Of a stretch of 64,000 nucleotides of DNA, positions 6,813 through 56,080 are shown piece by piece. The notes beneath the pieces are model-generated. The model was not told where the DNA came from. It was given only the letters and a program-made list of their open reading frames with translations, and ran no database searches. The number at the start of each line of letters is the position of its first letter. Position 1 is the stretch's first letter. Source of the stretch: Synergistota bacterium. Its GTDB lineage: Bacteria > Synergistota > GBS-1. The translations under genes were made by a program, and so were the position numbers. The stretch lies in the NCBI GenBank assembly GCA_025060595.1, contig JANXBX010000006.1, forward strand, positions 65,657-129,656, read 5' to 3'.

Positions 6813-6814
6813 AA

Positions 6815-8406: not shown

Positions 8407-8413
8407 TGAAATA

Positions 8414-9382
8414 TTGAAAATAGAAATTAATAGGGATCTATATAGCGCCTGTGAGACAGCTTTAAGGGAATGCATGGGAGTAAAAGAAGATGAAATAGTG
8501 CTTATAATAGCTGACGAGGAAAAAAGAAATATAGGCTTACACCTATGGATAAAGGCAAAAGAGCTTAAAACGGAAGCAATATACGTAGAAATGTTACCGA
8601 GAAAGATGCACGGAGAAGAGCCACCCCTACCCATAGCTGAAGCTATGAAATCAGCAGATGTAGTTTTAGCACCTACCTCTAAATCCATAACGCATACCCT
8701 TGCTAAAAAGGAGGCTTGCGAACGTGGAACGAGAGTAGCAACCCTTCCTGGAATAACGGAAGACATATTTATAAGAACATTAAACGCGAACTATGAGGAA
8801 ATGCTTAAGATAACTAATAAAGTGGCAGACATCCTTGACGAAGGAGAAAACATTGAAATAATAACTTCCCTTGGAACACATTTAAGCTTTTCCATAAAGG
8901 GTAGAAAGGCTAAAAGAAGCACAGGGATATATAGAAAGGTTGGAGAGTGTGGCAACCTCCCTGGAGCGGAAGCTTTCATAGCTCCGGTAGAGGGGACGGC
9001 TCAAGGAGTAGCAATTATAGATGGATCGATGGCAGGAATAGGCTTGTTAAAGAAGCCTATTCGTCTAATAATTAATGAAGGAATGGTCAAAACTATAGAA
9101 GGAGGTGAAGAGGCGGAAAAGCTCAAAGATATTCTATCGAGGTATAGCGAAGAGGCGAAAAATATAGGAGAGTTTGGTATAGGAACTAATCCAAAAGCCA
9201 TGATAAGCGGAAACACTCTTGAAGATGAAAAGGTTTTGGGAACCATTCATATAGCGATAGGAAACAATATAGACTTTGGGGGAACGATCAAGGCACCAAT
9301 TCATCTTGATGGTGTAATAAAGGTTCCAACAGTTATCGTAGACGGAAGACCTCTCATAAGAGAGGGTAAGCTCCTAATTTAG
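8414..9382 (+). CDS. Peptidase M29-like (aminopeptidase T / AmpS family) protein
   Basis: TTG start. 322 aa. Conserved C-terminal GTIHIAIGNN...HLDGV block, as in thermophilic M29 aminopeptidases. Confidence 0.55.
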   Translation: MKIEINRDLYSACETALRECMGVKEDEIVLIIADEEKRNIGLHLWIKAKELKTEAIYVEMLPRKMHGEEPPLPIAEAMKSADVVLAPTSKSITHTLAKKEACERGTRVATLPGITEDIFIRTLNANYEEMLKITNKVADILDEGENIEIITSLGTHLSFSIKGRKAKRSTGIYRKVGECGNLPGAEAFIAPVEGTAQGVAIIDGSMAGIGLLKKPIRLIINEGMVKTIEGGEEAEKLKDILSRYSEEAKNIGEFGIGTNPKAMISGNTLEDEKVLGTIHIAIGNNIDFGGTIKAPIHLDGVIKVPTVIVDGRPLIREGKLLI

Positions 9383-9398
9383 AAAGGAGGGGAATCAA

Positions 9399-10982: not shown

Positions 10983-12040
10983 AAAGATATATGACCCTTT
11001 ACGAGTTTGAGCTTGGGCTTGCAGCAAAAAAGCTCGTTAGAGATATACTTGATGTTCAACCTGATGAAATAGTAGCGATAACAGCAGATACGCTATCCAG
11101 CGAAGCTGTGGCTAACGCCACCGCAAGAGCAGTTTTCGAAGCTGGAGCAAAACCTATGACCATATGGGTTGCCACACCCTTGGGGGTTGGAAAAGCCGCT
11201 GATCCGATGCTTCCTCAAAAAGCCTTAATAGGAGCCTTAAACAATGCAGATGTATGGATAGAGTTTAACTACCAGTGGCTCTTATACTCAACGGTATTTG
11301 ATAGGGTGATTGCGGAAAACAAAAACCTAAGATATATATGCCTTGTGGGAATGAACCCAGATATGATGGTAAGAGTCATAGGAAGGGTGGATATAAAGGT
11401 TTTAGCACAATTCCTAAAAACGATTGCAGAGATAACTATGAAAGGGAAACACGTGAGAGTAACAACACCCGCTGGAACAGATGTGGAATTTGATAATCAC
11501 CCGCAAAGGCCACCTATAGTTCACTCAGGATACATACCTAAAGGGACCTATGGAATGCTACCTGGACAGATAAGCTGGACACCCAAGCTCGAGACTATAA
11601 AAGGGTACATAGTTTTCGATGGCTCCATATATCCACCTATAGGGTTGCTAAAAGAACCTATTAAACTAACCATCGAGAAGGGCAGAATAGTAAAAATAGA
11701 AGGGGGAAGAGAGGCAAGGGAGCTTGAAAGCTGGATCAAAAGCTTTAACGATCCAAACATGTATCAGTTAGCCCACATTTCTTATGGGTTTAATCCGGGA
11801 GCAAAACTTACCGGTGATATAGTTGAAGATGAAAGAGTATGGGGAGCAACCGAATGGGGAATAGGAAACATAGGTCCCAGATTAGTTCCAGATATACCAG
11901 GAGGGGTACCTGCAGCCTCCCATACCGATGGAATATGCTTAAATTCATCAGTATGGATCGATGGAGTTCAAATAACAGATAAAGGGGTCGTAGTAAACCC
12001 ACCTGAGCTTGTTGAACTTGCAAAAAGGATAAAGAAATAG
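10979..12040 (+). CDS. Peptidase M29 family protein (aminopeptidase / 2,5-dihydroxypyridine dioxygenase-like)
   Basis: 353 aa. Conserved WGATEWGIGN...HTDG block, paralogous to the gene at 8414. Confidence 0.5.
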   Translation: MKRYMTLYEFELGLAAKKLVRDILDVQPDEIVAITADTLSSEAVANATARAVFEAGAKPMTIWVATPLGVGKAADPMLPQKALIGALNNADVWIEFNYQWLLYSTVFDRVIAENKNLRYICLVGMNPDMMVRVIGRVDIKVLAQFLKTIAEITMKGKHVRVTTPAGTDVEFDNHPQRPPIVHSGYIPKGTYGMLPGQISWTPKLETIKGYIVFDGSIYPPIGLLKEPIKLTIEKGRIVKIEGGREARELESWIKSFNDPNMYQLAHISYGFNPGAKLTGDIVEDERVWGATEWGIGNIGPRLVPDIPGGVPAASHTDGICLNSSVWIDGVQITDKGVVVNPPELVELAKRIKK

Positions 12041-12086
12041 AAAATTACCTTCAAATCAGATTAAAATTAGATACCAAGTATGTTAT

Positions 12087-12114
12087 AGGGCTCCAGTATT
12101 ATACTGGAGCCCTA
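12087..12114. terminator. GC hairpin, putative bidirectional intrinsic terminator
   Basis: The sequence gggctccagtattatactggagccc is a perfect inverted repeat between the peptide operon and the ATPase. Confidence 0.5.
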
Positions 12115-12150
12115 ATAGTCATAAGTTTTAAAATTAATGGAGTGTAAAAA

Positions 12151-14226
12151 GTGAGAACATATAAAAAGCTATCCCTCATTGGACTTGATTGCCCTAACTG
12201 TGCAGTAAAAATCGAAAAGGATGTAAAGGGCATAAAGGGAGTTAAAGATGCGATAGTATCCTTAAGCTCTCAAAAACTAACCTTAACGATAGAGGAGGAA
12301 AGTAGCTGGCCAGACATCTTAAATCAGGTAAAGCTTGTGGTTAATAAGTACGATACAAACATAAAAGTCTTAGAAAAGGACCTTGAAGATAAACATAAGA
12401 TAACTAAAGAGATTATAAAACTAGCTTTAGGAACCTCTCCCTTTGTGATAGCTTTTCTCGCTAATGGCAGCTTAAAGCAGGCGCTATTTATCCTTTCCTA
12501 TATTGCAATTGGACACAGCGTGCTTTTAAAGGCATTTAAAAATATACTAAGCGGCCAAGTATTCGACGAAAACCTGTTAATGTCAATTGCCACCTCTGGA
12601 GCGCTTTTGATAGGTGAGGTGCCTGAAGCAATTTCCGTAATGCTCTTTTATAAGATAGGCGAGCTTTTGCAAAACATAGCAGTAGAAAACTCAAGAAGAT
12701 CTATAACCGCATTATTGGACCTGCGTCCGGAGTTTGCAAACTTACTAATTGGAAACGAAACGAAAAAAACTAAAGCAGAAGCGATAAAGATAGGAGACAC
12801 AATAATTGTGAGACCGGGGGAGAGAATCCCGCTTGATGGCATAGTCATAGAGGGAAGCTCAAGCGTTGACACATCTACTATTACAGGGGAATCTATGCCG
12901 AGAAGCGTAACAGTTGGAAACGAGGTTTTAGCGGGATTTATAAATCTAGATGGCCTGTTAAAGATAAAGGTAACCAAGGAGTTCAAGGAATCGACGATTA
13001 GTAAGATCTTAGAGCTAGTTGAAAATGCAAGTGCCAGAAAGGCAAGAACCGAAAACTTTATCACTAAGTTTGCAAGGTTTTACACACCTATTGTCATTCT
13101 CCTGGCTCTACTTATAGCTTTAATCCCGCCTATGGCGTTCGGACGACCCTTCTCCCTATGGATATATAGAGCTTTGGTTTTCTTAGTAGTCTCATGCCCA
13201 TGTGCACTGCTAATATCGATACCCCTTGGCTTCTTTGCAGGAATCGGATCAGCTTCAAGGAATGGCATTCTGATGAAAGGAAGTAACTACTTAGAAGCCT
13301 TAAACGACGTTAATACGATAATCTTCGATAAGACCGGAACCTTAACCATGGGAAGATTTAAAATAAAAAACATATGGTCAGCTAAAGGATACGAAAGAGA
13401 AGATATCCTTAATTATGCAGCCCATGCAGAGTTCTACTCTAATCATCCCATAGCCCAATCAATTTTAAACGAATACAGCAATATAGACGAAACTAAGATA
13501 AAGGAGTACAGAGAAATACCCGGCTTTGGGGTAGAAGCGAAAATAAACGATAAAAGAGTTCTAGTAGGAAATGCTAAACTGTTATCGGATAGAGGAATAG
13601 ATATTGATAAAGAAATCGAAACAGAAACGGGAGTTTACGTAGCCATCAACGATAAGCTTGCAGGATACATCACCTTTGAAGATGAGATAAAGAAAGACGC
13701 AAAGGAAACGATCGACCGCCTAAAGGAAATCGGAATTAAAACCGTACTTTTCACAGGGGATCATAAGAATGCAGCGAAATACGTTGCAGAAAGCCTAGGG
13801 ATAGACGAATTTTACCATGACCTTTTACCCCACCAAAAGGTGGAGAAACTGGAAGAATTAAAAACCAAGAAAAGCAGAGGAAATATAATTTTCGCAGGAG
13901 ATGGCATAAATGATGCAGCAGTCATCGCTAGAGCAGATATAGGCATCGCAATGGGAGCATTAGGACAAGATGCAGCCATCGAAGCTGCAGACGTGGTCAT
14001 CATGAACGATCAAATTAAAAGTATACTTACAGCTATACATATAGCAAGAAAAACCAAAAAGATAGTGTGGCAAAACATCTTCCTTGCCTTATCCATAAAG
14101 TTTCTCGTTTTAATCACGGCCTCGCTAGGAATGGTAAATATGTGGGAAGCGGTCTTTGCGGATGTAGGAGTAGCTCTTATGACAATCTTAAACTCACTGA
14201 GAATAACCAATGAGAATTTCGATTAA
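12151..14226 (+). CDS. Heavy-metal translocating P1B-type ATPase (Zn/Cd/Pb type)
   Basis: GTG start. N-terminal HMA domain with GLDCPNC. CPC motif (VVSCPCALL). DKTGTLT phosphorylation site. TM8 Asp (ADVGVALMTILNSLR) typical of P1B-2 ZntA/CadA. Confidence 0.85.
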   Translation: MRTYKKLSLIGLDCPNCAVKIEKDVKGIKGVKDAIVSLSSQKLTLTIEEESSWPDILNQVKLVVNKYDTNIKVLEKDLEDKHKITKEIIKLALGTSPFVIAFLANGSLKQALFILSYIAIGHSVLLKAFKNILSGQVFDENLLMSIATSGALLIGEVPEAISVMLFYKIGELLQNIAVENSRRSITALLDLRPEFANLLIGNETKKTKAEAIKIGDTIIVRPGERIPLDGIVIEGSSSVDTSTITGESMPRSVTVGNEVLAGFINLDGLLKIKVTKEFKESTISKILELVENASARKARTENFITKFARFYTPIVILLALLIALIPPMAFGRPFSLWIYRALVFLVVSCPCALLISIPLGFFAGIGSASRNGILMKGSNYLEALNDVNTIIFDKTGTLTMGRFKIKNIWSAKGYEREDILNYAAHAEFYSNHPIAQSILNEYSNIDETKIKEYREIPGFGVEAKINDKRVLVGNAKLLSDRGIDIDKEIETETGVYVAINDKLAGYITFEDEIKKDAKETIDRLKEIGIKTVLFTGDHKNAAKYVAESLGIDEFYHDLLPHQKVEKLEELKTKKSRGNIIFAGDGINDAAVIARADIGIAMGALGQDAAIEAADVVIMNDQIKSILTAIHIARKTKKIVWQNIFLALSIKFLVLITASLGMVNMWEAVFADVGVALMTILNSLRITNENFD

Positions 14227-14255
14227 GAAAGCTTTATAGGCGTATCGCTCGCTTT

Positions 14256-15458
14256 TCAAGGTAAGCTTTCTTCCTTCCTCTTAGCCTCTATGAAAGCCCT
14301 CCTTAATGCCTCTTTAATATCCTTGTCCTTAAGAACCAGAATAGCCATTCTTCCTAAGGCTTTAGCGCCTAAAACTATGGCCTCATGAGCTCTCTCAGAT
14401 TTAGTAAGCTCTGAGAATTCCCTTGTGTGCAGAGGTACCTTCTTTCCAGTTATATCTAAGACAGGTTGAATGGCTGGACATCTATGACTGACATTACCTA
14501 TGTCTGATGAGCCCATAGGACCTGGTGGCTCGGACAGCTCAACCTTAAGATCACGTAATATATCCTCGAAAAGCCTCTCAGCCACCTCATTTGGAAGCAT
14601 GTTATCAAAGCTAAACTCATAGTTTCGCCAAGTCACCTCTGTAGCTGTAGCCAAAGCAGCACCCTTAGCGCAATTAAAGACCTGCTCAACGAGTCTTTTA
14701 AGATAACCCCTCCATGGTGCCCTAAAGTAGAACCTCGCTACAGCCCTTTCCGGGACTATATTAGGAACACTACCACCATCAACTATAACACCATGCATTC
14801 TAACTTCCGGCTTCACATGTTGCCTTAACATATCTATAGCATGAAAGAAAAGCTGAAGACCATTTAAAGCGTTCCTACCCTCCCAAGGAGCTGAAGCAGC
14901 ATGGGAGGATTTCCCCTTAAACTCAAACTCTATGGCATCAAGAGCCAACGAACGATATTTGGCAAAACTTATACCTCCACCCGCATGGATCATCATAGCT
15001 AAGTCCACATCATCAAAAACTCCTCTTTCAGCCATCAAAACTTTGGCCCCGCTCGTTTCCTCAGAAGGAGTACCTATGACTAAAAGCTCCCCTCTTAGCT
15101 CACCCCTTTTAAAGAGTTTTATCAAAGCTATCCCAGCTAATGTGGACATAGCACCATGAACGTTATGACCACAAGCATGACCAATCTCTGGTAAAGCATC
15201 ATACTCCACTAAAAGAACCACCTTAGCACCATCACCATTTTTCACCTTACCGATAAAGGAATAGGGTATACCTATAAATGGCGATTCCATATCAAATCCA
15301 TGTCTTCTAAGAAGATCCATGTGGATCTTACTTGATCTTTCCTCTTCTCCGGAAAGCTCAGGGTTATCCGCAAGGTAATCACTTAAGGCTATGGCCTCCT
15401 GAGCGCTTTCCTCTACTAATCTATCAATCTCGTTAAAAAGCCCTCTGTATTTTTCCAT
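14256..15458 (-). CDS. M20 family amidohydrolase (AbgB-like)
   Basis: 400 aa. Metal-ligand motif ...EIGHACGHNVHGAMS... and an M20 dimerisation region. Confidence 0.8.
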   Translation of the reverse strand: MEKYRGLFNEIDRLVEESAQEAIALSDYLADNPELSGEEERSSKIHMDLLRRHGFDMESPFIGIPYSFIGKVKNGDGAKVVLLVEYDALPEIGHACGHNVHGAMSTLAGIALIKLFKRGELRGELLVIGTPSEETSGAKVLMAERGVFDDVDLAMMIHAGGGISFAKYRSLALDAIEFEFKGKSSHAASAPWEGRNALNGLQLFFHAIDMLRQHVKPEVRMHGVIVDGGSVPNIVPERAVARFYFRAPWRGYLKRLVEQVFNCAKGAALATATEVTWRNYEFSFDNMLPNEVAERLFEDILRDLKVELSEPPGPMGSSDIGNVSHRCPAIQPVLDITGKKVPLHTREFSELTKSERAHEAIVLGAKALGRMAILVLKDKDIKEALRRAFIEAKRKEESLP

Positions 15459-15461
15459 GAT

Positions 15462-16805
15462 TTACCTCCTTATGATCTTCCCTTCTGGCGGTTCTATAAT
15501 TTTCCCATCTTCCACAGAAACCTTTCCATTAACCACAACATACCTTATACCCTTTGGGGAAGCTAATGGCTCCTTAAAGGTAGCCATATCTTTAAACTCC
15601 TTAGGATCAAATATGGTTATATCCGCATAAAAGCCCTCCTTTATCTTTCCTCTATATTCCATGAAGGCATTATCTGCGGGAATCGTTGTAGCATGCCTTA
15701 AAGCCTCTTCCCAACTAAATCCCGCTTCCCTAAGCCACAACAACGCCCTAGGAAAGGCACCAGATGCCCGGGGATGTCCCCAACCACCTCTTATAACAGC
15801 ATCAGAAGCTATAGCACACATGGGGTGAAGGATACAAAGCCTCATCTCATCTTCATTCATAACGTGAGCAACAACCAACGTTTCTGGCGCATTTTGCCTT
15901 AAAAAGCTAAAAAGCTCGGGATCAAGCCTACGCCCCCTGAAACTTCCACTTGCCACCTCTATATATTCTAGCCCCTTACCCCACCTCTCCTCAAACCCAG
16001 GATCGAAAACAGCCGAACCTATGTAGGTACAAAAGGCAGAGTAGGGATAGCTATCGAATCTCAAATCCACACCCTCCGATATCGCTTCCTCAATCAATCT
16101 TAAGGCCTCTTTAGAATAGCCAAAAGCCGTCATACTCCCTAAATGAGATATAATAACTCTCACCTTAACATCTTTAGCTAAAGAAATGGCTTCCTTCACT
16201 GCCTCAATACACCTTGGACCATCATACCTTATATGTATAGAAATGAATCTCCTCTCGAATTCCCTTAAAACCCAAGCTAGACCATATATCTCATCTTTAT
16301 CAACATATGGAGTATATTCAAGACCGAGAGAAAAACCGAAAGAACCATGTCTTAACTCTTCTCTCAATATCTCTCTCATGGCCTCGATCTCAGAGGGACT
16401 GGCACACCTATAAGGATCATTTATACCTATAGACTCCCTTAAGGCTCTATGACCCGTTAAAAAGCCAAGGTTGATATACTTATCTTTCACGACCTTTTCT
16501 ATTTCTCTAACCAAAGCACCAGAGCCGCAGTTTCCAGAAATCCCAGTAGTTACACCTTGAAGAAGGAGCAACTTCTGTACCGTATAAGGATCAGAAGGAT
16601 CCTCATCTACATGCATATGAGTATCTATAAAGCCAGGTGAAACAACAAGACCAGTAGCATCAATAACCCTCTTAGCATTCACCTCGGCTTCTAGATCTGC
16701 AACCTTCTCTATATATACATCTTTTATTAATATAAGAGCAGATTTAAAGGTCTGGGACTCACCATCCCAGACCTTATCTCCCATTATGGCTAAATCATAA
16801 ATCAT
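15462..16805 (-). CDS. N-acyl-D-amino-acid deacylase (D-aminoacylase), amidohydrolase superfamily
   Basis: The N-terminal MIYDLAIMGDKVWDG...GLVVSPGFIDTHMHVDE is characteristic of D-aminoacylases. Confidence 0.75.
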   Translation of the reverse strand: MIYDLAIMGDKVWDGESQTFKSALILIKDVYIEKVADLEAEVNAKRVIDATGLVVSPGFIDTHMHVDEDPSDPYTVQKLLLLQGVTTGISGNCGSGALVREIEKVVKDKYINLGFLTGHRALRESIGINDPYRCASPSEIEAMREILREELRHGSFGFSLGLEYTPYVDKDEIYGLAWVLREFERRFISIHIRYDGPRCIEAVKEAISLAKDVKVRVIISHLGSMTAFGYSKEALRLIEEAISEGVDLRFDSYPYSAFCTYIGSAVFDPGFEERWGKGLEYIEVASGSFRGRRLDPELFSFLRQNAPETLVVAHVMNEDEMRLCILHPMCAIASDAVIRGGWGHPRASGAFPRALLWLREAGFSWEEALRHATTIPADNAFMEYRGKIKEGFYADITIFDPKEFKDMATFKEPLASPKGIRYVVVNGKVSVEDGKIIEPPEGKIIRR

Positions 16806-16806
16806 G

Positions 16807-18186
16807 TCACTGATATCCTATGAAAGTAGCTATTGCTATAAAAAGCATTTGAACAGGGAATATTAACAGGAAGAAAGGAGTAAAGAACTTCCACCACCTT
16901 TCTATAGGGACCTTAGCTATACTACATATGACCGGGAGAAGAGTCGTAGGCCAAAGGAGATTAGAGAAACCATCTCCATACTGGAAGGCTAAAACAGCAG
17001 TTTGCCTCGTTATGCCAAGCAAGTCAGATAGGGGAGCCATAATAGGCATGGTAACAGAGGCCTGTCCTGAACCAGAAGGTATGAAGAAGTTTATTATTGT
17101 TTGAACAACAAGCATACCCTCAGCTCCAACCCATGGAGGAAGTCCCTCAAGAGGTTTTGACAAACCGTATATAACGGTATCTATTATTCGTCCTTCTCTC
17201 ATAACTATGAGTATCGCTCTTGAGAGTCCTATAACAAGCGCCCCAAAAACTATATCTCTTGCACCTTCAAGGAAGGACTCAGCAATCTTATTAGGAGTAA
17301 AACCAGCTATTAGGGCACAAACAACGCCCATAATTAAAAATAAACCCGCTAACTCATTGAAATACCAACCAAGCTCTATAACTCCCCAAATAAGCAAGCC
17401 CACTGTAAAGATAACAATACCAAAAATTAATTTTTCCCTTAGTGTAAACTCCCTAACTATAAGCTCATCATGCCTTAAGGCTAACACACCCATATCTAAG
17501 CCATACATTAAGCTCTTCTTAGGATCCTTTTTAATTCTTCTGGCATATCTTATGGTCCACCAAACGGCCAAAGTTACAAAGGTAAACCAGCTTACGATCC
17601 TAAAGCCCAAACCTGAAAAGAGCGGTAACTCCGAAAACTTTTGAGCCAAACCAACGGTAAACGGATTCATAAAAGCTGCAGCAAATCCCATACCAACGCC
17701 AAAACAAACCATGCTTAAACCAACTATGGCATCATAACCCATAGCTATAGCGAGTCCAACAAAAAGGGGAACGAAGCCTAAGGCCTCTTCAAACATACCG
17801 AAAACAGATCCGCATAGGGCGAAGAAATACATGAAGACAGGAATCATAAATATCTCTTTGCCCTCAAGCTTTCTCAGCAAGAAACCTATAAAGGAGTGCA
17901 ATGCTCCCGTCTTCAAAACCATATAGAAGGAAGCATAAACGATGAAGACGAAAAATATGACCTCAGCTGCATCTATCATCCCTTTCTGAACGGCAATAAA
18001 GGTTTCAAAGAAACCGACAGGATTAGGATCAACCAGCTTATAGGTTCCAGGAACAACCACAGTCTTATTAGTCTTCGGATCCTTTACCCTATCAAACTCC
18101 CCAGCTGGAAGAGCATAAGTAAGAATAGCAGCTATCACCACTAAGGAAAAGAGCAAAACAAAGGTGTGAGGAACACGGACTCTCAT
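16807..18186 (-). CDS. YfcC family (DcuC/AbgT-related) putative amino-acid transporter
   Basis: A 459-aa membrane protein with the YfcC-family N-terminal region (FVLLFSLVVIAAILTYALPAGEFDR...). Confidence 0.7.
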   Translation of the reverse strand: MRVRVPHTFVLLFSLVVIAAILTYALPAGEFDRVKDPKTNKTVVVPGTYKLVDPNPVGFFETFIAVQKGMIDAAEVIFFVFIVYASFYMVLKTGALHSFIGFLLRKLEGKEIFMIPVFMYFFALCGSVFGMFEEALGFVPLFVGLAIAMGYDAIVGLSMVCFGVGMGFAAAFMNPFTVGLAQKFSELPLFSGLGFRIVSWFTFVTLAVWWTIRYARRIKKDPKKSLMYGLDMGVLALRHDELIVREFTLREKLIFGIVIFTVGLLIWGVIELGWYFNELAGLFLIMGVVCALIAGFTPNKIAESFLEGARDIVFGALVIGLSRAILIVMREGRIIDTVIYGLSKPLEGLPPWVGAEGMLVVQTIINFFIPSGSGQASVTMPIMAPLSDLLGITRQTAVLAFQYGDGFSNLLWPTTLLPVICSIAKVPIERWWKFFTPFFLLIFPVQMLFIAIATFIGYQ

Positions 18187-43391: not shown

Positions 43392-44429
43392 CTATAGGGT
43401 GGGAGGAATGGAGCTCAAAACATCCTTCAATATCTCAATGGAAATAAGATATTCCTTCAAATTTATGTGCTCTCTCGGAGTGTGATCAAGGGAGCTATCA
43501 CCAGGGCCATAAGCCACTGAAGGACAACCCCAAGCCGGAGCAAGCAAGTTCATATCGGCTGTACCGCTCTTCATCTTATGCTTCGGAGTTAAGCCTCTTC
43601 TTCTTATAGCCCTGTTAAAGGCTGAAACTAAAGGATTGCTTCTGTCACACTTATAAGCTTTAGCCTTAAAGTGTGGTACCCAACCATCGCCTAATATATT
43701 AAGAAGATCATCGGGATCAAGCCACAAGGGAAGCCTAAAGGAGATCCCCAGGTCAAGCCTTTCAAACAAACCATCGCTAAAAGATCTTATTTCCCTAACC
43801 TTTATATCAACCCTATCTATAGAGCCATCTCTACCTTCGTTTAACCCTTCTAAAAGCTTAGATATATCATTTAGGCTCCTTAAACCTTCCTCTATAGCTC
43901 CATCGTTTCCAGAAGCAGGGTGAGAAACCTCAGAGATAAAGCTCTTCTTTATAAACAATGAGCCCTTGTATCCTAATGTAACTCCATCAATACCGCTCGG
44001 CTCACCTATTATTAGATAAGAGGGTGGCTTTGAAACCTTCTTTAAAAGATGAAGAGCTCCTGTCGATGGTCCCTCCTCTTCAACTGCACCAACTACTACA
44101 AGCTTAAGATGCTCAGGAATAGAAACCTCAGAAGCAGCCACTATAAAGGCTGCTAACGGACCTTTTGCATCAACACTTCCCCTACCATAAAGAAGATCAC
44201 CATCGATTCTCGGCTCTATCCATCCAGGAGCTGTATCCATATGTCCCACAAGATAAACCTCGGTTTGCCCTTTACCACGAACAGCGATAAAGTTTCCTAC
44301 CTCATCCAAATAAGCTTCATCAAAATTAAGATTCTTTGAAGCATCAAGTAAAAACTCACCTATTTCCTTTTCCTCTCCAGCGAAGCTTTTTATCTCAACC
44401 ATCCTGCGAAGAAGCTCTATCGGACACAT
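43392..44429 (-). CDS. lysK: [LysW]-lysine/ornithine hydrolase (LysK / ArgE-like M20 peptidase)
   Basis: M20 motifs (VYLVGHMDTAP...GSVDAKGPLAA). Last gene of the LysW operon. Confidence 0.7.
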   Translation of the reverse strand: MCPIELLRRMVEIKSFAGEEKEIGEFLLDASKNLNFDEAYLDEVGNFIAVRGKGQTEVYLVGHMDTAPGWIEPRIDGDLLYGRGSVDAKGPLAAFIVAASEVSIPEHLKLVVVGAVEEEGPSTGALHLLKKVSKPPSYLIIGEPSGIDGVTLGYKGSLFIKKSFISEVSHPASGNDGAIEEGLRSLNDISKLLEGLNEGRDGSIDRVDIKVREIRSFSDGLFERLDLGISFRLPLWLDPDDLLNILGDGWVPHFKAKAYKCDRSNPLVSAFNRAIRRRGLTPKHKMKSGTADMNLLAPAWGCPSVAYGPGDSSLDHTPREHINLKEYLISIEILKDVLSSIPPTL

Positions 44430-45597
44430 CTCTTGAAAGCACCCTCCTAACTTTATCTACGACAAAAAGGATTTCCTCCTCACTTATAACAAGAGGAGGA
44501 AGAAACCTCATTACAGTAGGCCCAGCTTGAAGGGCTAAAACCCCTTCTTCAGCCAGAGCCTTAAGGTAAGGGGCGCTCCTTTTCTTTAACTCGATACCTA
44601 TCATTAAACCTAAACCCCTTACATCTTTAACAAAGGGGGAATCTATGCTTTTCAATCCATCGATAAATAAACCACCTAATTTTTCAGCCCTTTTGTCGAG
44701 GACCTTCTCTCTCATAAACCTTATTGCCGCCCTCGCAGCAGCACATGAAAGAGGATTTCCGCCAAAGGTCGAACCATGGGTTCTAGATGGTACTTTGCCT
44801 AAAGACTCTCTCATTACGACTGCACCTATAGGAAGACCTCCTGCCATACCTTTAGCTAAACAAACCATATCAGGGGAAAGATCATGCCACTGGAAACCGA
44901 AGAACTTACCGGTTCTACAGAAACCAGTTTGAATTTCATCAGATATAAATAAAGCCCCTTTACTTTTACAAAGATCCTGAGCAAATCTTAAAAACCCCCC
45001 ACTTATAGGGTAAACCCCTCCTTCACCCTGAACGGGCTCGAATATAAACGCTGCAGTATCTTCATCTATCGCCTTCTCAAGCTCTTCCCCATTCTCTGGT
45101 TCCACGTGAACAAAACCCGGAACCAACGGTTCAAAAGGCTCTCTATATTTAGGATTCCAAGTAGCGCTTAAGGCCCCAAAGGTTCTTCCATGAAAACCCC
45201 TTTTCAAAGCAACTATCTTCTTTCTCCCTGTTAGAAGTCTCGCAAACTTTATAGCCGCTTCAATAGCCTCTGTACCACTGTTACATAAAAAAACGCTACC
45301 CATATACTCCGGCATAACATCAAGAAGCTCTTTATAAAGAAGGGCTCTCTCCTCATGATAAAAAGTTTCGGAGCAAACTATAAGTTTTTTAGCCTGCGTT
45401 TCTATAGCTTCAAGAACATAAGGATTAGCATGCCCTACTATGCCTACCCCGTGCCCTCCAACACAATCTATATATTCCCTCCCCTGATCATCCCAAACTC
45501 TAGCTCCCTCTCCCCTAACTAACCTCAAGGGCACCTTGGGATATACTCCACTTCCATACTTCTCTTCCAGCTCTATCAGATTCAAGGTTAAGCTCAC
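44395..45597 (-). CDS. lysJ: [LysW]-aminoadipate semialdehyde / acetylornithine aminotransferase (LysJ / ArgD), PLP-dependent class III
   Basis: 400 aa. Class III aminotransferase motifs (DCVGGHGVGIVGH..., LIFDEIQTGFCRTG, CLAKGMAGGLP). Confidence 0.85.
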   Translation of the reverse strand: MSLTLNLIELEEKYGSGVYPKVPLRLVRGEGARVWDDQGREYIDCVGGHGVGIVGHANPYVLEAIETQAKKLIVCSETFYHEERALLYKELLDVMPEYMGSVFLCNSGTEAIEAAIKFARLLTGRKKIVALKRGFHGRTFGALSATWNPKYREPFEPLVPGFVHVEPENGEELEKAIDEDTAAFIFEPVQGEGGVYPISGGFLRFAQDLCKSKGALFISDEIQTGFCRTGKFFGFQWHDLSPDMVCLAKGMAGGLPIGAVVMRESLGKVPSRTHGSTFGGNPLSCAAARAAIRFMREKVLDKRAEKLGGLFIDGLKSIDSPFVKDVRGLGLMIGIELKKRSAPYLKALAEEGVLALQAGPTVMRFLPPLVISEEEILFVVDKVRRVLSRDVSDRASSQDG

Positions 45598-46414
45598 TCC
45601 TTCCTCTAAATATGGTTCCTTTACCCTGGAGAGCTGATATAATCGGGCTCTCGATACAACCAGAGGCTATTACACCTTCCCTGACTCCTCCTCTAACAGC
45701 TTCAAACAATGCCATCACCTTTTTCTTCATTCTACCTTTGGCTATCTGAAGTATCTCCTCTTCCATGTCAAGAGAAACCTCTTGAATTAAGCTTTCAGGA
45801 TCACTTAAATCCCTTAAGAGGCCTGGCACATCCGAGAGAATAACCAAGCTTTCACTTCCTAAGGACAAAGCTATCTTTGATGCAAGGGTATCTCCATCAA
45901 CGTTAAGGAGCTCTCCATTAAAGCCAAAGGCCAAGGGAGCTACTACAGGAACAAAACCCATATTTAAAAGCTCCCTTAAGAAAGAATCGTTAATCCTCTC
46001 TATCTTGCCGGAGTAGTCATCTTTTATAACCTTAACCTTCCCATCAGGTGTAAGAGCCTTTATAATCTTCCTCTCGGCTTCAATCAGCCTACCATCGGCT
46101 CCGCTTAAACCTATAGCTTGAACCCCTATGCTTTGAAGCTGAGCAACAAGAAATCTGTTTATCTTTCCAGCACACGCCATAACAAAGACTTCAAGAACCT
46201 CTTTCGTCGTTCTTCTGCTTTCAAACCCAGAAGGAGAAACCACCTTTTCTACCTCGACACCTAGCTTCCTTGATAGCTCATTTGTAGCCTCACCACCGCC
46301 ATGGACTATAACAAGCTTTTCACCCATATCATAAAGCCTTTTAATATCACTGCATACATTTTTGAAATTCCCATTCAGGCTTCCACCTATCTTTAAAACT
46401 ATCAAAAACTTCAC
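45515..46414 (-). CDS. lysZ: [LysW]-aminoadipate / acetylglutamate kinase (LysZ / ArgB)
   Basis: Amino-acid kinase fold (LIVLKIGGS...VIVHGGG). The likely start is the GTG at 46412-46414, preceded by AGGGGG. The ORF-track start further upstream is an in-frame extension. Confidence 0.8.
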   Translation of the reverse strand: MKFLIVLKIGGSLNGNFKNVCSDIKRLYDMGEKLVIVHGGGEATNELSRKLGVEVEKVVSPSGFESRRTTKEVLEVFVMACAGKINRFLVAQLQSIGVQAIGLSGADGRLIEAERKIIKALTPDGKVKVIKDDYSGKIERINDSFLRELLNMGFVPVVAPLAFGFNGELLNVDGDTLASKIALSLGSESLVILSDVPGLLRDLSDPESLIQEVSLDMEEEILQIAKGRMKKKVMALFEAVRGGVREGVIASGCIESPIISALQGKGTIFRGRSELNLESDRAGREVWKWSISQGALEVS

Positions 46415-46418
46415 CCCC

Positions 46419-47447
46419 CTAAACGGGATAAACAGGTACAAGCTTTAACCCCATATCTTCAGGCAATCCCAAAGCGATATTAGCCGCTTGAACTGCACTG
46501 CCTGATGCTCCTTTAACCAGATTATCTATAACGCTTACCACGGTTAATGCTCTTCCACCAGGATGAAGTTTAAGCCCGATCATACAAAGATTAGTCCCTG
46601 TAACCCATCTTGGATCAGGAAAACGAAGATGCTCCGGCTTAAAAGGACAGAGCTCAATAAAAGATTCAGAAGAATATCTATCCCTATAGATCTTAAGTAT
46701 CTCCCTTTCACTAAGATCCTCTTTAAGCTCACATCTAACAACAGCTTGAATACCTCTGACAAGCTCAACAGCTGTTATCCTTATCTCTCCATTAACTCCC
46801 GTCTCTTGAGTGACCTCAGCAAGGTGCCTATGCTCATAAGTAGCATAGATCCTTAAGGCCCTGCTTCTTTCTGGATGATGTCCGCCCTCTGAAGGCTTAG
46901 CTCCTCCCGCAGAAGAACCAACCCTTACATCCGCATGAAAACTTTCCAATAGCTTCTTCTCAGCCAATGGCAAAAGAGCCAAATTTATAGCTGTTGCATT
47001 ACATCCCACACCCGAGATCAACTTAGCGCTTCGTAACTCCTCTCTATGAGCCTCGGGAAGACCATAGACTGAACTTTTCAGAAGCTCCGGATAAGGATGG
47101 CTCCAAGAGTACCACTTTTCATACTCCCTGGGCTCCTTAAGCCTGAAGTTAGCGCTTAAGTCAACAACCTTTTTCCCCTTATCGTATATTTCTTTAACGA
47201 GATCAGCTCCCTCACCATGAGATAGAGCAACAAAGGCTATATCAAAATCCTCATCAAGGGCTTCTCCGTAACTTATAAAGTTATCCTTAAAAAAAGGCCT
47301 TAGGTGAGGATGATACCTCCAGATGGGCTCCCCTACCGCCCCCTGAGAGGCAACGCCTATAACCTTTATCCCTTCATGAAAAGAAAGTATCCTCAACAGC
47401 TCTCCTCCAGTGTATCCCCTTCCTCCGAACACAATAGCCTTTATCAC
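46419..47447 (-). CDS. lysY: [LysW]-aminoadipyl-phosphate / N-acetyl-gamma-glutamyl-phosphate reductase (LysY / ArgC)
   Basis: IKAIVFGGRGYTGGELLRIL is the NAD(P) Rossmann start. Catalytic Cys region SGVGCNATA. Confidence 0.85.
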   Translation of the reverse strand: MIKAIVFGGRGYTGGELLRILSFHEGIKVIGVASQGAVGEPIWRYHPHLRPFFKDNFISYGEALDEDFDIAFVALSHGEGADLVKEIYDKGKKVVDLSANFRLKEPREYEKWYSWSHPYPELLKSSVYGLPEAHREELRSAKLISGVGCNATAINLALLPLAEKKLLESFHADVRVGSSAGGAKPSEGGHHPERSRALRIYATYEHRHLAEVTQETGVNGEIRITAVELVRGIQAVVRCELKEDLSEREILKIYRDRYSSESFIELCPFKPEHLRFPDPRWVTGTNLCMIGLKLHPGGRALTVVSVIDNLVKGASGSAVQAANIALGLPEDMGLKLVPVYPV

Positions 47448-48290
47448 GAAAGCACCTCCTCAACATAGTCAGCTATCATCTCTCCCACATCGATTCCAAC
47501 ATCTCTGGATGATCTTGCAAACTCTGGCGTAGAATTAACTTCATTAACTAGAAGCCCTCTTTCGCTCTCAAAGAGATCCAAAGCTATAAAGTCTCCACCA
47601 ACGATAGAAGCCACCTTTTCCGATATTCTAATTAACTCATCACTTACGGAACATAACGCAGCTTTAGCTCCTCTAGCCGTATTTGTTACCCAATGGGAAG
47701 AGCTTCTATAAACCGCATACTTAACTTTCCCACCTATAACAAGAACCCTGATATCCCTTCCAGGCTTCCTTACATACTCTTGAATATAAAAGGCCTTCTG
47801 ATGAACTCCTCCTAAGTTCCAGCGACAAAATATTATAGCTTCGGCAGCATCCCTATCATTAACCTTTGCTAAGAGCCTTCCCCAGGAACCGTTAACGGGC
47901 TTTATAACAGCAGGATAACCAATCTCCTCTAAGGCCTCTAAAGCCTTCTCAGGGGTAAAAGCAAGATAGGTACGGGGAACAGGAATTCCCTCCTTGGCCA
48001 AAAGCTCGGTAGTCAAAGCTTTATCGTTACAGACGACCATTGTTCTAAAGGGATTTATAACCTTAACTCCCCTATCCTCAAGCAAAAAGGATATATAAGT
48101 AGCCTGAGAGGCACTTAAGGTTCTATTTATAGCTAATCTAGCTCCAGGAACTCCATTACCTAACTCCCAAAGGGTCCTATTCCCCAGAACCTTTTCCACC
48201 TTTATCCCCCTTCTACTTAAAGCTTTATCTATTATCCTTTCCTCATCCCTCAAAATCGTATAGATTAAGAGAATCTTCTTGTCCTCCGTC
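47444..48290 (-). CDS. RimK-type ATP-grasp ligase, second paralogue (LysX/ArgX-type LysW-gamma-glutamate or alpha-aminoadipate ligase)
   Basis: ATP-grasp motifs ([27 protein letters not shown]...). No canonical start codon lies between the LysW stop and KKILLIY, so the 5' end is uncertain. The ORF-track start at 48337 would overlap lysW by 40 nt. Confidence 0.7.
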
Positions 48291-48296
48291 CCAAGG

Positions 48297-48485
48297 CTAC
48301 TCCCCCCAATCCTCTTCAACCTCGGGAGCAACCTCAAGCTCCAAAGGATTAAGACTCACAATCTCAAGTTCAACACCACAATCAGGACATATAACAATTT
48401 CTCCCACCTCTGGATCTTCAAGCTCTAATACCACATCACACTCAGGACAACGAGATTTAATCACCATTAAATTCACCCCCATCAA
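48297..48485 (-). CDS. lysW: Amino-group carrier protein LysW
   Basis: 62 aa. Zn-ribbon CPECD...CPDCG. Acidic C-terminal tail ending EDWGE, the LysW hallmark. Confidence 0.85.
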
Positions 48486-49318
48486 AGGAAACTTTTTATA
48501 TACCTTACTATCTCCCCTGGTATGTCCACACCCGTAGGGGCAATGCTATTTCTAAACTCAGGGGAGTGATTTATCTCGTTAACCAAGAGCTCACCCGAGG
48601 GTGTCTCAAAAATATCAAGGGCTACCACCTCTCCATCTACAGCACGAGCTGCTCTTTCAGAAAGCTCAACTAGCTCAGAAGTTAATGGGCAGTTTCTAGC
48701 TTCACCACCACGAGCGGTATTTGTTATCCAGTGAGGCGAAACCCTATATATGGCAGCAACACACTTGCGTCCTATAACGAAGCTTCTTATATCCCTGCCA
48801 GGCTTATTCACATACTCTTGAATATAGAAGATCTTCTGAAGCCCATTTCCTAAAGTGTACTTATGTTCCAATACCGCCTCAGCCGCATCTTTATCATTAA
48901 CCTTCGCTAAAAGCCTTCCCCAAGAACCATTAACAGGCTTAACAACCGCTGGATATCCAACCCTCTCTATTGCCTTTAAAGCATTCTCTGGAGAAAAAGC
49001 AAGATAAGTACGCGGAACAGGAATACCATTTTCCACCAAGAGAAGAGTTGTTATAGCTTTATCTAGACAGCTAGATATTGCCCTAGAGGAACTTATTACC
49101 CTTATTCCGTTACTTTCAAGGACCCGCGATACATAGAAAGCATGAGAGGCTGAAATAACGCGGTTTAAAACCACCGCAGGGGGTTTAATAGAAAGCTCCC
49201 CATTAGCAAAGAGAGGAAGTAAAAGACTATCCTCGTGAAGAAGATTTAGAGCAACACCCTCCCTTTCAAAGGCATCGATAAGCAACTTTTCCTCAACTCT
49301 TAACCTTGAGTAGACCAT
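48482..49318 (-). CDS. lysX: RimK-type ATP-grasp ligase LysX (LysW--alpha-aminoadipate / glutamate ligase)
   Basis: 278 aa. ATP-grasp ([27 protein letters not shown]). Paralogous to the gene at 47444. Confidence 0.8.
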
Positions 49319-53687: not shown

Positions 53688-54068
53688 TTAGAGTGGACAC
53701 AACGATAGCCTATGCAAATAGGGACAGTGAGCGCAATTAGGTAAGTTCCCCCAGCAATCGCTTTGGTTACTTAAAGTAAAATCACAACCTTCCTTAAAGG
53801 GGCACTCGAAACAAGAAGGAAGATAATTGAAAGTTAATCTTAAAAACATTTCAGAGTATTTATCTCTCCAAACATCCATTAGATTATCACAAGCTATATT
53901 ACCTAAGGAAACCTCTTTTATATTCCTCTCCTTATTTAGGACCTTGACCTTCCATGACCTTGAAAAGTATAAGCACGGAGCTATTTCTCCATCACATCTT
54001 ATAAAAAGAGCTCTGTTTGAAGCAAAAGGACAACCCCTTGCAAACCTTGTTAGATGATAACAACACAA
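53688..54068 (-). pseudogene. Orphan SPASM/twitch-domain fragment. This is the C-terminal auxiliary Fe-S domain of a radical SAM maturase with no radical SAM core upstream.
   Basis: 126 aa. SPASM motifs RCDGEIAPC, GNIACDNLMDVW and CAHCPYLHRLSLC. No CxxxCxxC core region. The AT-rich upstream 290 bp has no ORF. Confidence 0.45.
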
Positions 54069-54379
54069 CTGAAGAACAAAGCACTGGAGGATAAGTCACA
54101 GTGCTAAGGATAATCATACTTCATTTGTCATCCCAGTGATATTAGCTATCACAATTTTTAATAAGATAATTCCTCAGAAAGGCCATTAGATTCTAACGAG
54201 GAGCCTCTATTACTTTAACAGCTTAAATTCCGCACCTTACTTAAAAAGCTTTAAATCTATTGACTTGATAGAAGAGACCGTTTAAACTTAAGATAAAAGC
54301 TAAAGAGCGGCAGAGAAAGGGAGAGCCATTCTTAGAGTGAAGAGTGGCTCTCCTTTTACTTTATAGGAGGTGACCAGGT

Positions 54380-56080
54380 TTGAAAAAAGAACAAAAAACA
54401 GGAAACGCATCAAAACTCTTAGAAAGTATCGAAAACATGTTCTTCGAGATTTTCCAATTAACTTGGCTTTTAAACGAAAATATAAAGGTTTTTGAAAACA
54501 TAGCTGAAAGTTTCTCTAACGTAGAAAAGCTTAATATTAAGAGCTTTGACAATGCCTCAATAATAATGGAGATAGTGAATGAACTTGTAAAAATATCCAA
54601 CAAACTAAGGGAAGAAACTCTACGAGCGAAAAACATTACAGAAACACTTGAAAACACCTGTAGAAACTTAAGCATCTCTATAGCTATGGCGCGGAACGCT
54701 TTAGAAGAACAAGAAAAAATCTTCAAAAAGGTTGTAGAAACTAATGAAAATCTTATAAATCAATCAGGAGCCGTAGCAGAAATAATAAAAACTTTAAACC
54801 TGCTTGCTAAACAGATAAACCTGCTTTCTCTCAACGCCTCTATAGAAGCCGTAAAGGCCGGTGAAAAAGGGAAAGGCTTTGCGGTTGTATCACAAGAGAT
54901 AAGAAAACTCTCAGAAAAAACAAGAGAGGCTAACTCTGAAATAGAAAAAACGATCAAAAATATCGTGAACACGATAAAGGAATCTTTTGAAATAACTAAT
55001 AAATCCTTTGAAGAGTTTTCGAAACTTAAAGAATCGTTTAAGGCGTTTATGGGTTTTATATCCCAAACGGCCTCAGGATTCGAAAACGTTTTTCAAGTAA
55101 CAACAACGATAAATAGCATATCTGATGAAGTTCTTAAAGTAACAAACAAAATAGAGGAATCTTCAAGGGAAATTTTTGATACATCTAAGAATGTAAGAGA
55201 GCTATCAAGGGAGGTGGGAAATACCGTAAAGACCCAAGAAAGCAAAAACCAAGAGGTTTTAAAAATGATATCCTCTCTCAACAAAACCCTTTTCGATATA
55301 CAAAGGCAAGCATCCACCTTAAGATCCGAACAGGAGATAATTTTTGGAGTCAATCCTTTCACAAATCCTAAAACTATAAGAGAGATGTACTACCCCATAA
55401 TAAAGTGGGCTTGCGAAAAAGCAGGTTATACATCAAGAATGGTTATCGTTCACAGTTACGATGCTTTGACTCAAGCCTTAAAAGAAGAGATAGTTGATGG
55501 AGGTTGGTTTTCCCCATTCGCATATGTTGAAGCAAAGGAGACTTTGGATAATATAGTTCCTATAGCGACTCCCATAGTTAACGGAAGAGCAAGCTACGAT
55601 GGATATATTATTACCTCCAAAAAGTCCAATATAAAAAGCCTTAAAGACCTTAAAGGAAAGCGCTTCGGATTTGTAGATCCCAAAAGCGCTTCAGGTTATC
55701 TATTTTCAAAATATGCTCTACTTCAAGAGGGAATAAACCCTGATAAGGACTTCAAAGAAACCCTCTTCCTGGGAAGTCACGATAATGTTATAAAGGCTGT
55801 TCTTCAAGGAGAAATAGATGCAGGTGCCACTTACAATGAAGCACTAGAAAGAGCTAAAGAACAGGGAGTAGACATAAGTGATGTAGTTATAATAAACACC
55901 GTTAAAGATATACCTAAAGACGCAATAGTCTTACTTAATCGCCTACCACATAACTTCATAGAAAAATTCAAGGAGGCGCTTCTTTCATTTAAACAAGCCA
56001 AGGGAATTCAAGGTTTTGTTGAAGCAAGAGATGAGCGCTATGACATCATAAGAAGGGTTAAAAAAACTATATCTTTATAA
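54380..56080 (+). CDS. Soluble chemoreceptor-like protein: an MCP signalling domain fused to a C-terminal PhnD/SsuA-type periplasmic-binding-protein domain, with no TM segments
   Basis: TTG start after AGGAGGTGA. MCP signature LLSLNASIEAVKAGEKGKGFAVVSQEIRKLSEKT. The C-terminal ~250 aa match PhnD-like binding proteins (IIFGVNPFTNP...LKGKRFGFVDPKSASGYL...AGATYNEALE). No hydrophobic helices. Confidence 0.75.
   Translation: MKKEQKTGNASKLLESIENMFFEIFQLTWLLNENIKVFENIAESFSNVEKLNIKSFDNASIIMEIVNELVKISNKLREETLRAKNITETLENTCRNLSISIAMARNALEEQEKIFKKVVETNENLINQSGAVAEIIKTLNLLAKQINLLSLNASIEAVKAGEKGKGFAVVSQEIRKLSEKTREANSEIEKTIKNIVNTIKESFEITNKSFEEFSKLKESFKAFMGFISQTASGFENVFQVTTTINSISDEVLKVTNKIEESSREIFDTSKNVRELSREVGNTVKTQESKNQEVLKMISSLNKTLFDIQRQASTLRSEQEIIFGVNPFTNPKTIREMYYPIIKWACEKAGYTSRMVIVHSYDALTQALKEEIVDGGWFSPFAYVEAKETLDNIVPIATPIVNGRASYDGYIITSKKSNIKSLKDLKGKRFGFVDPKSASGYLFSKYALLQEGINPDKDFKETLFLGSHDNVIKAVLQGEIDAGATYNEALERAKEQGVDISDVVIINTVKDIPKDAIVLLNRLPHNFIEKFKEALLSFKQAKGIQGFVEARDERYDIIRRVKKTISL

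Follow-up and report, generated by a model that had tools for sequence, protein, structure and literature searches.

A LysW amino-group-carrier operon with two LysX-family ligases in a Synergistota bacterium and its possible dual role in lysine and arginine biosynthesis

The 64,000-nucleotide stretch analyzed here (the window; GenBank assembly GCA_025060595.1, a metagenome-assembled genome labeled Synergistota by NCBI, contig JANXBX010000006.1, forward-strand positions 65,657 to 129,656) carries a complete seven-gene operon for biosynthesis on LysW, an amino-group carrier protein, located at 43392-49318 on the minus strand. Two ligases of the LysX family flank the single lysW gene. The evidence leans toward a dual operon, in which one carrier and one set of late enzymes would make both lysine and ornithine, the precursor of arginine, under Lys/Arg attenuation, with the role of the second ligase predicted. 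Lysine is very likely one product, because ligase 1 carries the exact LysX specificity signature. The argument for ornithine draws on the residues of ligase 2, on the neighbors of comparable ligases in other bacteria, and on a conserved leader that mixes Lys and Arg codons.

Specificity signatures of the two ligases

Ligase specificity was read at Thermus positions 182, 192, 203, and 258/259, a five-residue signature defined in PMC12998189 and PMC10433800. The reference motifs were recovered correctly from PDB sequences. LysX carries F-I-T-NS, Sulfolobus ArgX carries I-Y-V-GF, and the bifunctional Thermococcus enzyme carries Y-I-T-NA, while the substitution F182I by itself makes Thermus LysX load glutamate (PMC12998189). 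Natrinema ArgX, experimentally Glu-specific, has Ala-Leu at the last two positions, and Sulfolobus LysX has Asn-Thr (PMC10433800). Glu specificity has therefore been reached with different residues, since the Natrinema ArgX motif differs from that of Sulfolobus ArgX. Asn258 is found in all characterized aminoadipate acceptors (NS, NT, and NA) and in no Glu-specific enzyme (GF and AL).

Ligase 1 (49318-48482, minus strand; 278 aa) is a LysX-type [LysW]-aminoadipate ligase that scores 326 bits against the TIGR02144 LysX model (cut-off 276) and 280 bits against Thermus LysX (3VPD). Its signature, F-I-T-NS, is the same as in the aminoadipate-specific LysX of T. thermophilus. This identity argues against an operon for arginine/ornithine only, that is, an ArgW-type system as in haloarchaea, with lysine made through diaminopimelate. 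Arginine-dedicated bacterial LysW clusters do exist (locus L014), and no aminoadipate-forming genes lie in the window. Nevertheless, single ligases with F-I-T-NS adjoin the genes for homocitrate synthase (hcs), homoaconitase (hacAB), and homoisocitrate dehydrogenase (hicdh), not arg genes. The operon leader also has six to seven Lys codons in three lineages, and the top model for LysZ is a [LysW]-aminoadipate kinase. We consider an arginine-only role highly improbable.

Ligase 2 (48319-47444, minus strand; 291 aa) is a paralogous LysX-family ligase, 51% identical to ligase 1 and scoring 306 bits against the LysX model, for which we propose a [LysW]-glutamate (ArgX-like) function. Its signature, L-V-T-RS, lies outside all three characterized classes, and Asn258 is missing. 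Both this loss and the Leu at 182, the position where F182I opens Thermus LysX to glutamate, speak for a glutamate-loading role. Ligase 2 does not carry the ArgX signature I-Y-V-GF; common to both are an aliphatic residue at 182 and the absence of Asn258. The protein retains 48 of the 60 columns that are invariant across three reference structures; the GSWGR motif and the D/E/N metal-ligand region are among those kept. Three departures are conserved. The mobile lid 'LEHK' is replaced by 'I[FSY][CYH]RW', 'EFKNS' has become 'EF[AS]RS' with the invariant basic residue shifted from 257 to 258, and the third is G207. All nine orthologue clusters of ligase 2 (P0001-P0009) read L-[VI]-T-RS, and beyond these orthologues the next-best database matches reach at most 54% identity.

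The seven-gene operon is found with unchanged gene order in at least four related lineages and is kept in loci L002, L003, L009, and L015-L018. The relatives stand at about 87%, 81%, and 70% ligase 2 identity (L009, L015, L016/L017, and L003/L004/L018). All seven genes are intact and under strong purifying selection, with ratios of nonsynonymous to synonymous substitution rates (dN/dS) of 0.03-0.08 in two closer comparisons and at most 0.16 against L003, at saturated dS. For ligase 1 the ratio is 0.03-0.06 and for ligase 2 about 0.055. Because dN/dS is low while dS is saturated, ligase 2 is a maintained, functional gene. A decaying duplicate was rejected on the same ratio and on the 48 invariant columns kept.

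Second ligases in other LysW loci and the origin of ligase 2

Open reading frames (ORFs) were called in all 94 collected loci and sorted by BLAST against the window proteins and the arg and aminoadipate-pathway proteins of an Anaerolineae locus. Two-ligase LysW clusters proved common in metagenome-assembled genomes (MAGs) of Anaerolineae and in metagenomes, often beside argG/argH. Every two-ligase locus in which both motifs are readable pairs one F-[IV]-T-NS ligase with one that has no Asn258. The motifs of these second ligases are [LM]-V-T-GA, [FY]-[AST]-[AT]-[AGE]-[SL], and L-V-T-[RK]-S.

Across the 78 other LysW loci, argG, argH, or carA occurs in 21 of 51 loci with an Asn258-lacking ligase against 1 of 27 others (Fisher p = 4e-4, for loci that are phylogenetically non-independent). 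The pattern is consistent, and the one Asn258-only locus with arg genes is cut off at the ligase. Where the single ligase has no Asn258, arg genes are present in all cases (6/6), and linkage to hcs/hacAB/hicdh is seen with a single Asn258 ligase. Individual layouts illustrate these associations (X, ligase with its motif in brackets). Locus L014 runs lysW-X[LMTGA]-Y-Z-J-K-argG-argH. In L063, the order is argG-argH-X[FTAAS]-lysW-X[FITNS]-Y-Z-J-K-carA. The Anaerolineae locus L006 reads argG-argH-lysW-X[FITNS]-X[LVTGA]-lysY-lysZ-hcs x3-hacA-hacB-hicdh.

Further arrangements were observed in the survey. Metagenome loci L021, L023, L025, L043, L045-L048, and L072 share the order lysW, a short ligase-like ORF, lysK, X[YSAGL/FSTGL], X[FITNS], lysY, lysZ, and lysJ. 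Clusters of this L021 type hold up to three ligase-family matches, and their second ligases group with a Streptosporangium ligase (L010). On the 2-kb metagenome contig L037, an L-V-T-K-S ligase stands beside an F-I-T-NS ligase and lysW, and L095 has a single A-I-T-K-S ligase close to aconitase and isocitrate-dehydrogenase genes. Ligases with a basic residue at 258 may form a wider, uncharacterized specificity class.

The initial annotation had likened the two ligases to the LysX plus ArgX pair of Sulfolobus. The functional logic of that comparison is retained, but orthology is not. Ligase 2 scores 154 bits against 3VPB and 238 bits against Thermus LysX. In neighbor-joining trees, bootstrap support for a grouping of ligase 2 with S. 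tokodaii ArgX is at most 10%, and with Chloroflexota second ligases it is 0%. Ligase 2 as an orthologue of Sulfolobus ArgX was rejected on both score and tree. Instead, ligase 2 joins the ligase 1 clade with 74% support over the full length, 54% over the N-terminal third, and 5% over the C-terminal half.

Reciprocal monophyly of the ligase 1 and ligase 2 paralogues breaks down in the central block. In the L003 lineage (L003 5273-7144), the two ligases have 52 consecutive identical residues in common, which indicates a gene-conversion tract between paralogues. On the MAG contig L005 (9116-9952), a ligase 1::ligase 2 chimera is joined over the same 52-aa block and lysW is missing; this reflects either an assembly collapse or a real recombination. 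Hence, the corresponding cluster P0008 was rejected as a single-ligase relative without lysW, the chimera being no independent architecture. The simplest account is that ligase 2 arose as a lineage-specific duplicate, with gene conversion probably ongoing in the middle of the gene and divergence in the substrate-binding C-terminal half. More broadly, the ligase tree suggests that bacterial second ligases arose, or were homogenized with their partners, at least three times.

Operon enzymes, proposed pathway and leader attenuation

Window genes were identified with NCBIfam and Pfam profile searches, and all of the features described in this section lie on the minus strand. The carrier gene lysW (48461-48297; 54 aa) matches TIGR01206 with 83.7 bits (cut-off 53) and PF21344. 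Its product has the four zinc-ribbon cysteines (CxxC...CxxC) and a C-terminal EEDWGE, and its alignment with Thermus LysW (3WWL; 67.9 bits) reaches through the EDWGE end. Downstream of ligase 2 lies lysY (47447-46419; 342 aa; argC family, 335 bits; active site GCNAT), for a [LysW]-aminoadipyl/glutamyl-phosphate reductase. It is followed by lysZ (46405-45515; 296 aa; NF010659, 292 bits, cut-off 223), for a [LysW]-aminoadipate/glutamate kinase. The gene lysJ (45585-44395; 396 aa) encodes a [LysW]-semialdehyde aminotransferase of class III (Aminotran_3). The series closes with lysK (44429-43392; 345 aa; TIGR01902, 300 bits, cut-off 163), for an M20-family [LysW]-lysine/ornithine hydrolase. The initial annotation of a complete LysW operon with two RimK/LysX-type ligases and an EDWGE-tailed carrier is borne out in gene order, extent, and family matches.

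Two of the assignments carry sub-threshold scores. For lysJ, the top model LysJ_Th_th gives 478 bits, under its cut-off of 700, and the argD subfamily 423 bits against a cut-off of 410; for lysK, the [LysW]-lysine hydrolase model NF003367 gives 351 bits, under its cut-off of 363. The nearest solved structures of the window proteins are Thermus LysX, LysW, LysZ, and LysY. LysZ scores 218 bits against Thermus LysZ (3U6U) and 113 bits against ArgB, and LysY about 240-243 bits against Thermus LysY (2OZP/5EIO) and 185 bits against canonical ArgC. The window LysY also holds the Cys-Asn active-site pair that sets LysY apart from ArgC (PMC12041015).

The genes were described as tightly packed with overlaps of a few nucleotides. 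Tight packing holds, but the extent of the overlaps does not. Ligase 1 and lysW are separated by 20 nt, and lysY and lysZ by 13 nt. The overlaps measure 23 nt at lysW/ligase 2, 4 nt at ligase 2/lysY, 71 nt at lysZ/lysJ, and 35 nt at lysJ/lysK. An overlap of 23 nt suggests that translation of ligase 2 is coupled to that of lysW. At the N-terminus of ligase 2, the conserved 'KRIGGSS' results from reading the EEDWGE-stop tail of lysW in another frame (48297-48319), and this extension was rejected as a new domain for that reason. The tail of lysZ runs about 30 residues past the end of the family profile and overlaps the lysJ start by 71 nt (45515-45585). The lysJ start differs between gene callers, giving 396 or 379 aa. 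Six nucleotides past the lysK stop codon lies a terminator-like hairpin (43386-43355; 14 bp, 9 G-C pairs).

By homology, ligase 1 would use ATP to couple alpha-aminoadipate, through its alpha-amino group, to the gamma-carboxyl of the Glu that ends LysW. LysZ would then phosphorylate the LysW-bound substrate, LysY reduce it, and LysJ transaminate it, after which LysK would free lysine. Under the dual reading, ligase 2 would put glutamate on the same LysW. The bound glutamate could then be carried to ornithine, the arginine precursor, by the same LysZ, LysY, LysJ, and LysK. Such sharing is plausible because the Thermus enzymes accept LysW-Glu intermediates, LysZ at about 60% of its native activity and LysY at an estimated 15-20%.

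Upstream of ligase 1, a sigma-70-type promoter lies at 49607-49578 (TTGACA, 18-nt spacer, TG-TATATT), with 11 of 12 consensus matches and an extended -10 TG. Matching -35 and -10 hexamers were seen by eye in L009, L016, and L003. The operon is one transcription unit that starts from this promoter (about 49607) and stops at the terminator (43355).

Between promoter and ligase 1 lies a leader ORF (49544-49431) with a GTG start and 37 codons. It is preceded by GAGGGAGG and was called as a 37-aa gene in L002. The leader peptide of the window, MINLKAHLSKSLLKRNKGYKKPKLRAWEGGFIASALG, has seven Lys and two Arg codons, as does that of L009, MSKLVAHLPKRWLKRNKQSKKPKLLAWEGESVASALG. The L016 peptide, MNRLGTHLPKICLKRNKQFKKPKPRGWEGGFFASALG, has six Lys and three Arg codons, and the L003 peptide, MFNLLAHLPRVCLKRNKRSRKPGLLVGGGELIASASG, three Lys and four Arg codons. 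The initial annotation took the Lys-rich leader as a pointer to lysine, and the seven Lys codons agree with it, with conserved Arg codons besides. The core TTG AAG CGG AA(C/T) AAG is invariant over the four lineages despite saturated dS, with AAG CGG AAC/T AAG forming codons 14-17 (KRNK). CGG is the rarest Arg codon, making up 2% of the Arg codons in window genes. Lys and Arg together are enriched in leader codons 10-25 (8/16 core codons, p about 2e-4). Such a mixture of interchangeable Lys and Arg codons is in keeping with a pathway that ends in two basic products.

The leader RNA (49532-49364) comprises a 1:2 helix, a stop-codon hairpin, an antiterminator, and a terminator. Its minimum free energy is -89.5 kcal/mol (z = -5.8 against shuffled controls). 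The 1:2 helix pairs leader codons 6-12 with codons 25-31 and holds the Lys/Arg block in its loop. A hairpin of 8-9 bp spans the leader stop codon, and an 18-bp intrinsic terminator (49409-49371) precedes a U-run. Segment 2, CUUGGGAAGGUGGG, can base-pair with the terminator's 5' arm, so that an antiterminator of 13-14 bp is possible. RNAalifold on the four lineages returns the antiterminator (2:3) as consensus, and in each lineage singly the minimum-energy fold is the 1:2 helix plus terminator. The helices are kept over the four lineages with some one- and two-sided pair changes, covariation being weak with four sequences. With segment 1 masked, the terminator is still favored in three of four lineages, and the antiterminator would therefore have to act kinetically.

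From this structure we infer a conserved ribosome-dependent attenuator upstream of the operon. When Lys-tRNA is scarce, and probably Arg-tRNA too, a ribosome would stall in the Lys/Arg-codon block of the leader. Stalling would open the 1:2 helix and free segment 2 to pair with the terminator's 5' arm, letting RNA polymerase read through. With both amino acids plentiful, the ribosome would pass through segment 2 and the 18-bp terminator would form. A lysine riboswitch was also considered and rejected, as Rfam at gathering thresholds matched no riboswitch or known leader anywhere in the window.

Past the terminator, the only strong Shine-Dalgarno sequence before ligase 1 (AAGGAGG, 49354-49348) lies 27 nt upstream of its ATG. 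The same site is 9 nt upstream of a mini-ORF, TTG GGG AAG CGC (MGKR...; 49338-49300), which overlaps the ligase 1 start in another frame. At this mini-ORF, TTGGGGAAGCGC is invariant in the four lineages. L009 has TTA in place of the ligase 1 ATG.

Several observations weigh against the dual reading, the non-independence of the surveyed loci among them. The motif rule has its limits, as the motif swap in Natrinema ArgX left its specificity unaltered (PMC10433800), and the specificity of ligase 2, like that of any [AS]-R-S ligase, is a prediction. The ligase P0101 (A-I-T-K-S), the only one of its locus, adjoins aconitase and isocitrate-dehydrogenase-type genes. From that context, a basic residue at 258 may be compatible with aminoadipate, and a rule equating such a residue with Glu specificity finds no support in P0101. 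Arg genes are missing next to the operon and throughout the 64-kb window, and none lies within 10 kb on either side of it in four relatives. Arg enrichment of the leader alone (p = 0.17) is non-significant in three of four lineages and significant only in L003. Instead of sensing Arg, two Arg codons in a leader that is basic anyway could be due to constraints on the RNA or the peptide.

Some of these points favor an operon for lysine only. Both ligases would then load alpha-aminoadipate, with ligase 2 as an isoenzyme that differs in kinetics or regulation or as a partner subunit of ligase 1, and arginine would come from a canonical N-acetyl pathway encoded elsewhere, as in Thermus. Both ligases exceed the LysX equivalog cut-off and are nearest to Thermus LysX, and the operon has no arg neighbors. 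In three of four lineages the leader is rich mainly in Lys, P0101 combines Lys at 258 with aconitase and isocitrate-dehydrogenase-type neighbors as the sole ligase of its locus, and the gene-conversion tract points to paralogues that still exchange sequence. Against this, Asn258 is gone from ligase 2, its invariant basic residue sits at 258 instead of 257, and its 'EHK' lid is altered; the orthologues of ligase 2 keep all three changes. Elsewhere in bacteria, Asn258-lacking second ligases co-occur with arg genes. A redundant copy kept until dS was saturated at a dN/dS of about 0.055 is also less parsimonious than a distinct function. On this evidence, a lysine-only operon appears rather unlikely.

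A third substrate for ligase 2 is quite doubtful. Here, ligase 2 would represent a new specificity class (L-[VI]-T-R-S, basic residue moved from 257 to 258, 'RW' lid) that accepts neither aminoadipate nor glutamate. It would load aspartate or another dicarboxylic amino acid, for example, and lead to a third diamino acid such as 2,4-diaminobutyrate, comparable to actinomycete carrier-protein routes to non-proteinogenic amino acids. The combination [AS]257-R258-S259 is unlike the characterized classes, in that a long basic side chain replaces Asn, Gly, or Ala, and the lid 'I[FSY][CYH]RW' is distinct and conserved. Some related ligases occur in a Streptosporangium locus (L010) that resembles secondary metabolism. 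However, no extra tailoring enzymes lie in or beside the operon, whose neighbors are unrelated, and a Lys/Arg-codon attenuator is typical of primary amino-acid biosynthesis. The downstream enzymes are also ordinary LysZ, LysY, LysJ, and LysK of Thermus type. A milder version of the novelty is that bacteria may, several times and independently, have turned their own LysX into ArgX-like Glu ligases. In the present lineage, such a dual pathway may be coupled to a two-amino-acid attenuator for Lys plus Arg and, at the first gene, to a second Lys-Arg mini-ORF.

Comparison with known systems and genomic surroundings

Four arrangements of LysW-type pathways have been described: lysine-only in Thermus, bifunctional in Thermococcus, LysX plus ArgX in Sulfolobus, and arginine-only in haloarchaea (PMC12998189). 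In the searched literature, LysX plus ArgX is described for Sulfolobus alone, and LysX without ArgX for Thermus and Deinococcus. The pathway-database range for the LysW arginine route includes some bacteria, as relayed by one preprint. The searched literature yielded no account of bacterial operons with LysX and a second ligase, none of an [AS]-R-S class of ligases, and none of a Lys/Arg leader. Bacteria with LysX and a second ligase on one carrier, as seen in this locus and the survey, add a fifth situation.

The Thermus lysine pathway offers the nearest sequences, the F-I-T-NS signature of ligase 1, and the EDWGE tail of LysW. Thermus, with its one LysX, makes arginine by a separate N-acetyl pathway (PMC12998189); the single LysX was also stated in the initial annotation. 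In contrast, the window has a second, diverged ligase, and its late genes form one compact operon without linked aminoadipate-forming genes. Its leader is also longer, with Lys and Arg codons mixed. The Thermus lysine cluster, too, is reportedly controlled by leader-peptide attenuation (Tsubouchi et al. 2005, J Biol Chem).

In Sulfolobus, a single LysW and a single LysZ/Y/J/K set serve both LysX and ArgX (Ouchi et al. 2013, summarized in PMC12998189). The likeness to the window lies in two paralogous ligases with a single carrier and enzyme set, one ligase being LysX-type and the other without Asn258. The differences are a bacterial host, ligases that flank lysW, an L-V-T-RS rather than I-Y-V-GF signature, and the origin of ligase 2 as a probable local LysX duplicate. 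The likeness is functional rather than one of gene order because, to our knowledge, Sulfolobus argX does not flank lysW. Regulation also differs, with an attenuator in the window and the LysM regulator in Sulfolobus (PMC3597687).

The Anaerolineae/Chloroflexota clusters (L006, L026, L039, and L063 among them) likewise combine an F-[IV]-T-NS ligase with an Asn258-lacking ligase, the two sharing lysW, lysY, and lysZ. L063 even has the ligase-lysW-ligase order of the window. These clusters, unlike the window operon, are physically linked to argG/argH/carA and often to hcs/hacAB/hicdh. In place of the [AS]R-S seen in the window, their second ligases have [LM]-x-T-GA or [FY]-x-A-[AE]-S, and they belong to other clades. 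The haloarchaeal ArgW/ArgX system of Natrinema gari (PMC10433800) resembles the window in its EDWGE-tailed carrier and in a Glu-specific ligase without Asn258 (Ala-Leu). It has a single ligase and no carrier-borne lysine, whereas the window adds a LysX-type ligase and a Lys-rich leader.

The E. coli thr and ilv leaders are multivalent ribosome-mediated attenuators with clustered end-product codons and alternative 1:2, 2:3, and 3:4 pairings. The window leader is like them in its short ORF, clustered end-product codons, alternative pairings, and intrinsic terminator. It differs in that the codons are Lys together with Arg and lie in the loop between segments 1 and 2, and in that an MGKR mini-ORF overlaps the first gene. 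As a compact case of multivalent attenuation, the Lys/Arg leader would lie outside Proteobacteria and Firmicutes.

The bacterial second ligase appears to have had multiple origins, or gene-conversion homogenization, with different pocket residues each time. Such ligases constitute a natural variant set for how aminoadipate and glutamate are told apart, and they bear on the 'bifunctional ancestor' model of lysine/arginine pathway evolution. The system is of interest to specialists in carrier-protein pathways and pathway evolution without amounting to a new principle. Both ligases go by the plain name 'LysX' in databases, and because automatic annotation names them so, metabolic reconstructions of such MAGs may miss an arginine route.

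Proteins identical to the ligases bear the NCBI title 'MAG: lysine biosynthesis protein LysX [Synergistetes/Synergistota bacterium]'. These protein records, together with the sigma-70 promoter, the Shine-Dalgarno sites, and the intrinsic terminators, support the earlier view of a bacterial-type genome. The operon also occurs on a near-identical contig of GCA_026414785.1 and in a Logan assembly. A scan of genome contigs returned one related species (L009) and two actinomycete loci. Pfam scans of the other ORFs detected no hcs, homoaconitase, hicdh, arg, or dap genes in the 64-kb window, in line with the initial annotation that the homocitrate synthase, homoaconitase, and homoisocitrate dehydrogenase genes are missing there. 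In the BLAST survey, no aminoadipate-forming genes lay within the +/-10 kb flanks of relatives.

The operon's neighbors in the window encode transporters, peptidases, organic-acid enzymes, and chemoreceptors. A block at 5057-18186 contains an Asp/Glu racemase, DUF1177, AroM, an M29 peptidase, an OPT oligopeptide transporter, an M20 peptidase, an amidohydrolase, and DcuC. This peptide and amino-acid utilization block fits a peptide-fermenting lifestyle, given which a de novo Lys/Arg operon with starvation control would be notable. In the window, 53688-56080 is occupied by a SPASM-domain fragment (126 aa) and a gene that fuses chemoreceptor and phosphonate-binding parts (566 aa). In the same place, the near-identical contig L001/L008 carries an intact radical-SAM/SPASM gene followed by an aldehyde:ferredoxin oxidoreductase. 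The difference is a local rearrangement between closely related genomes.

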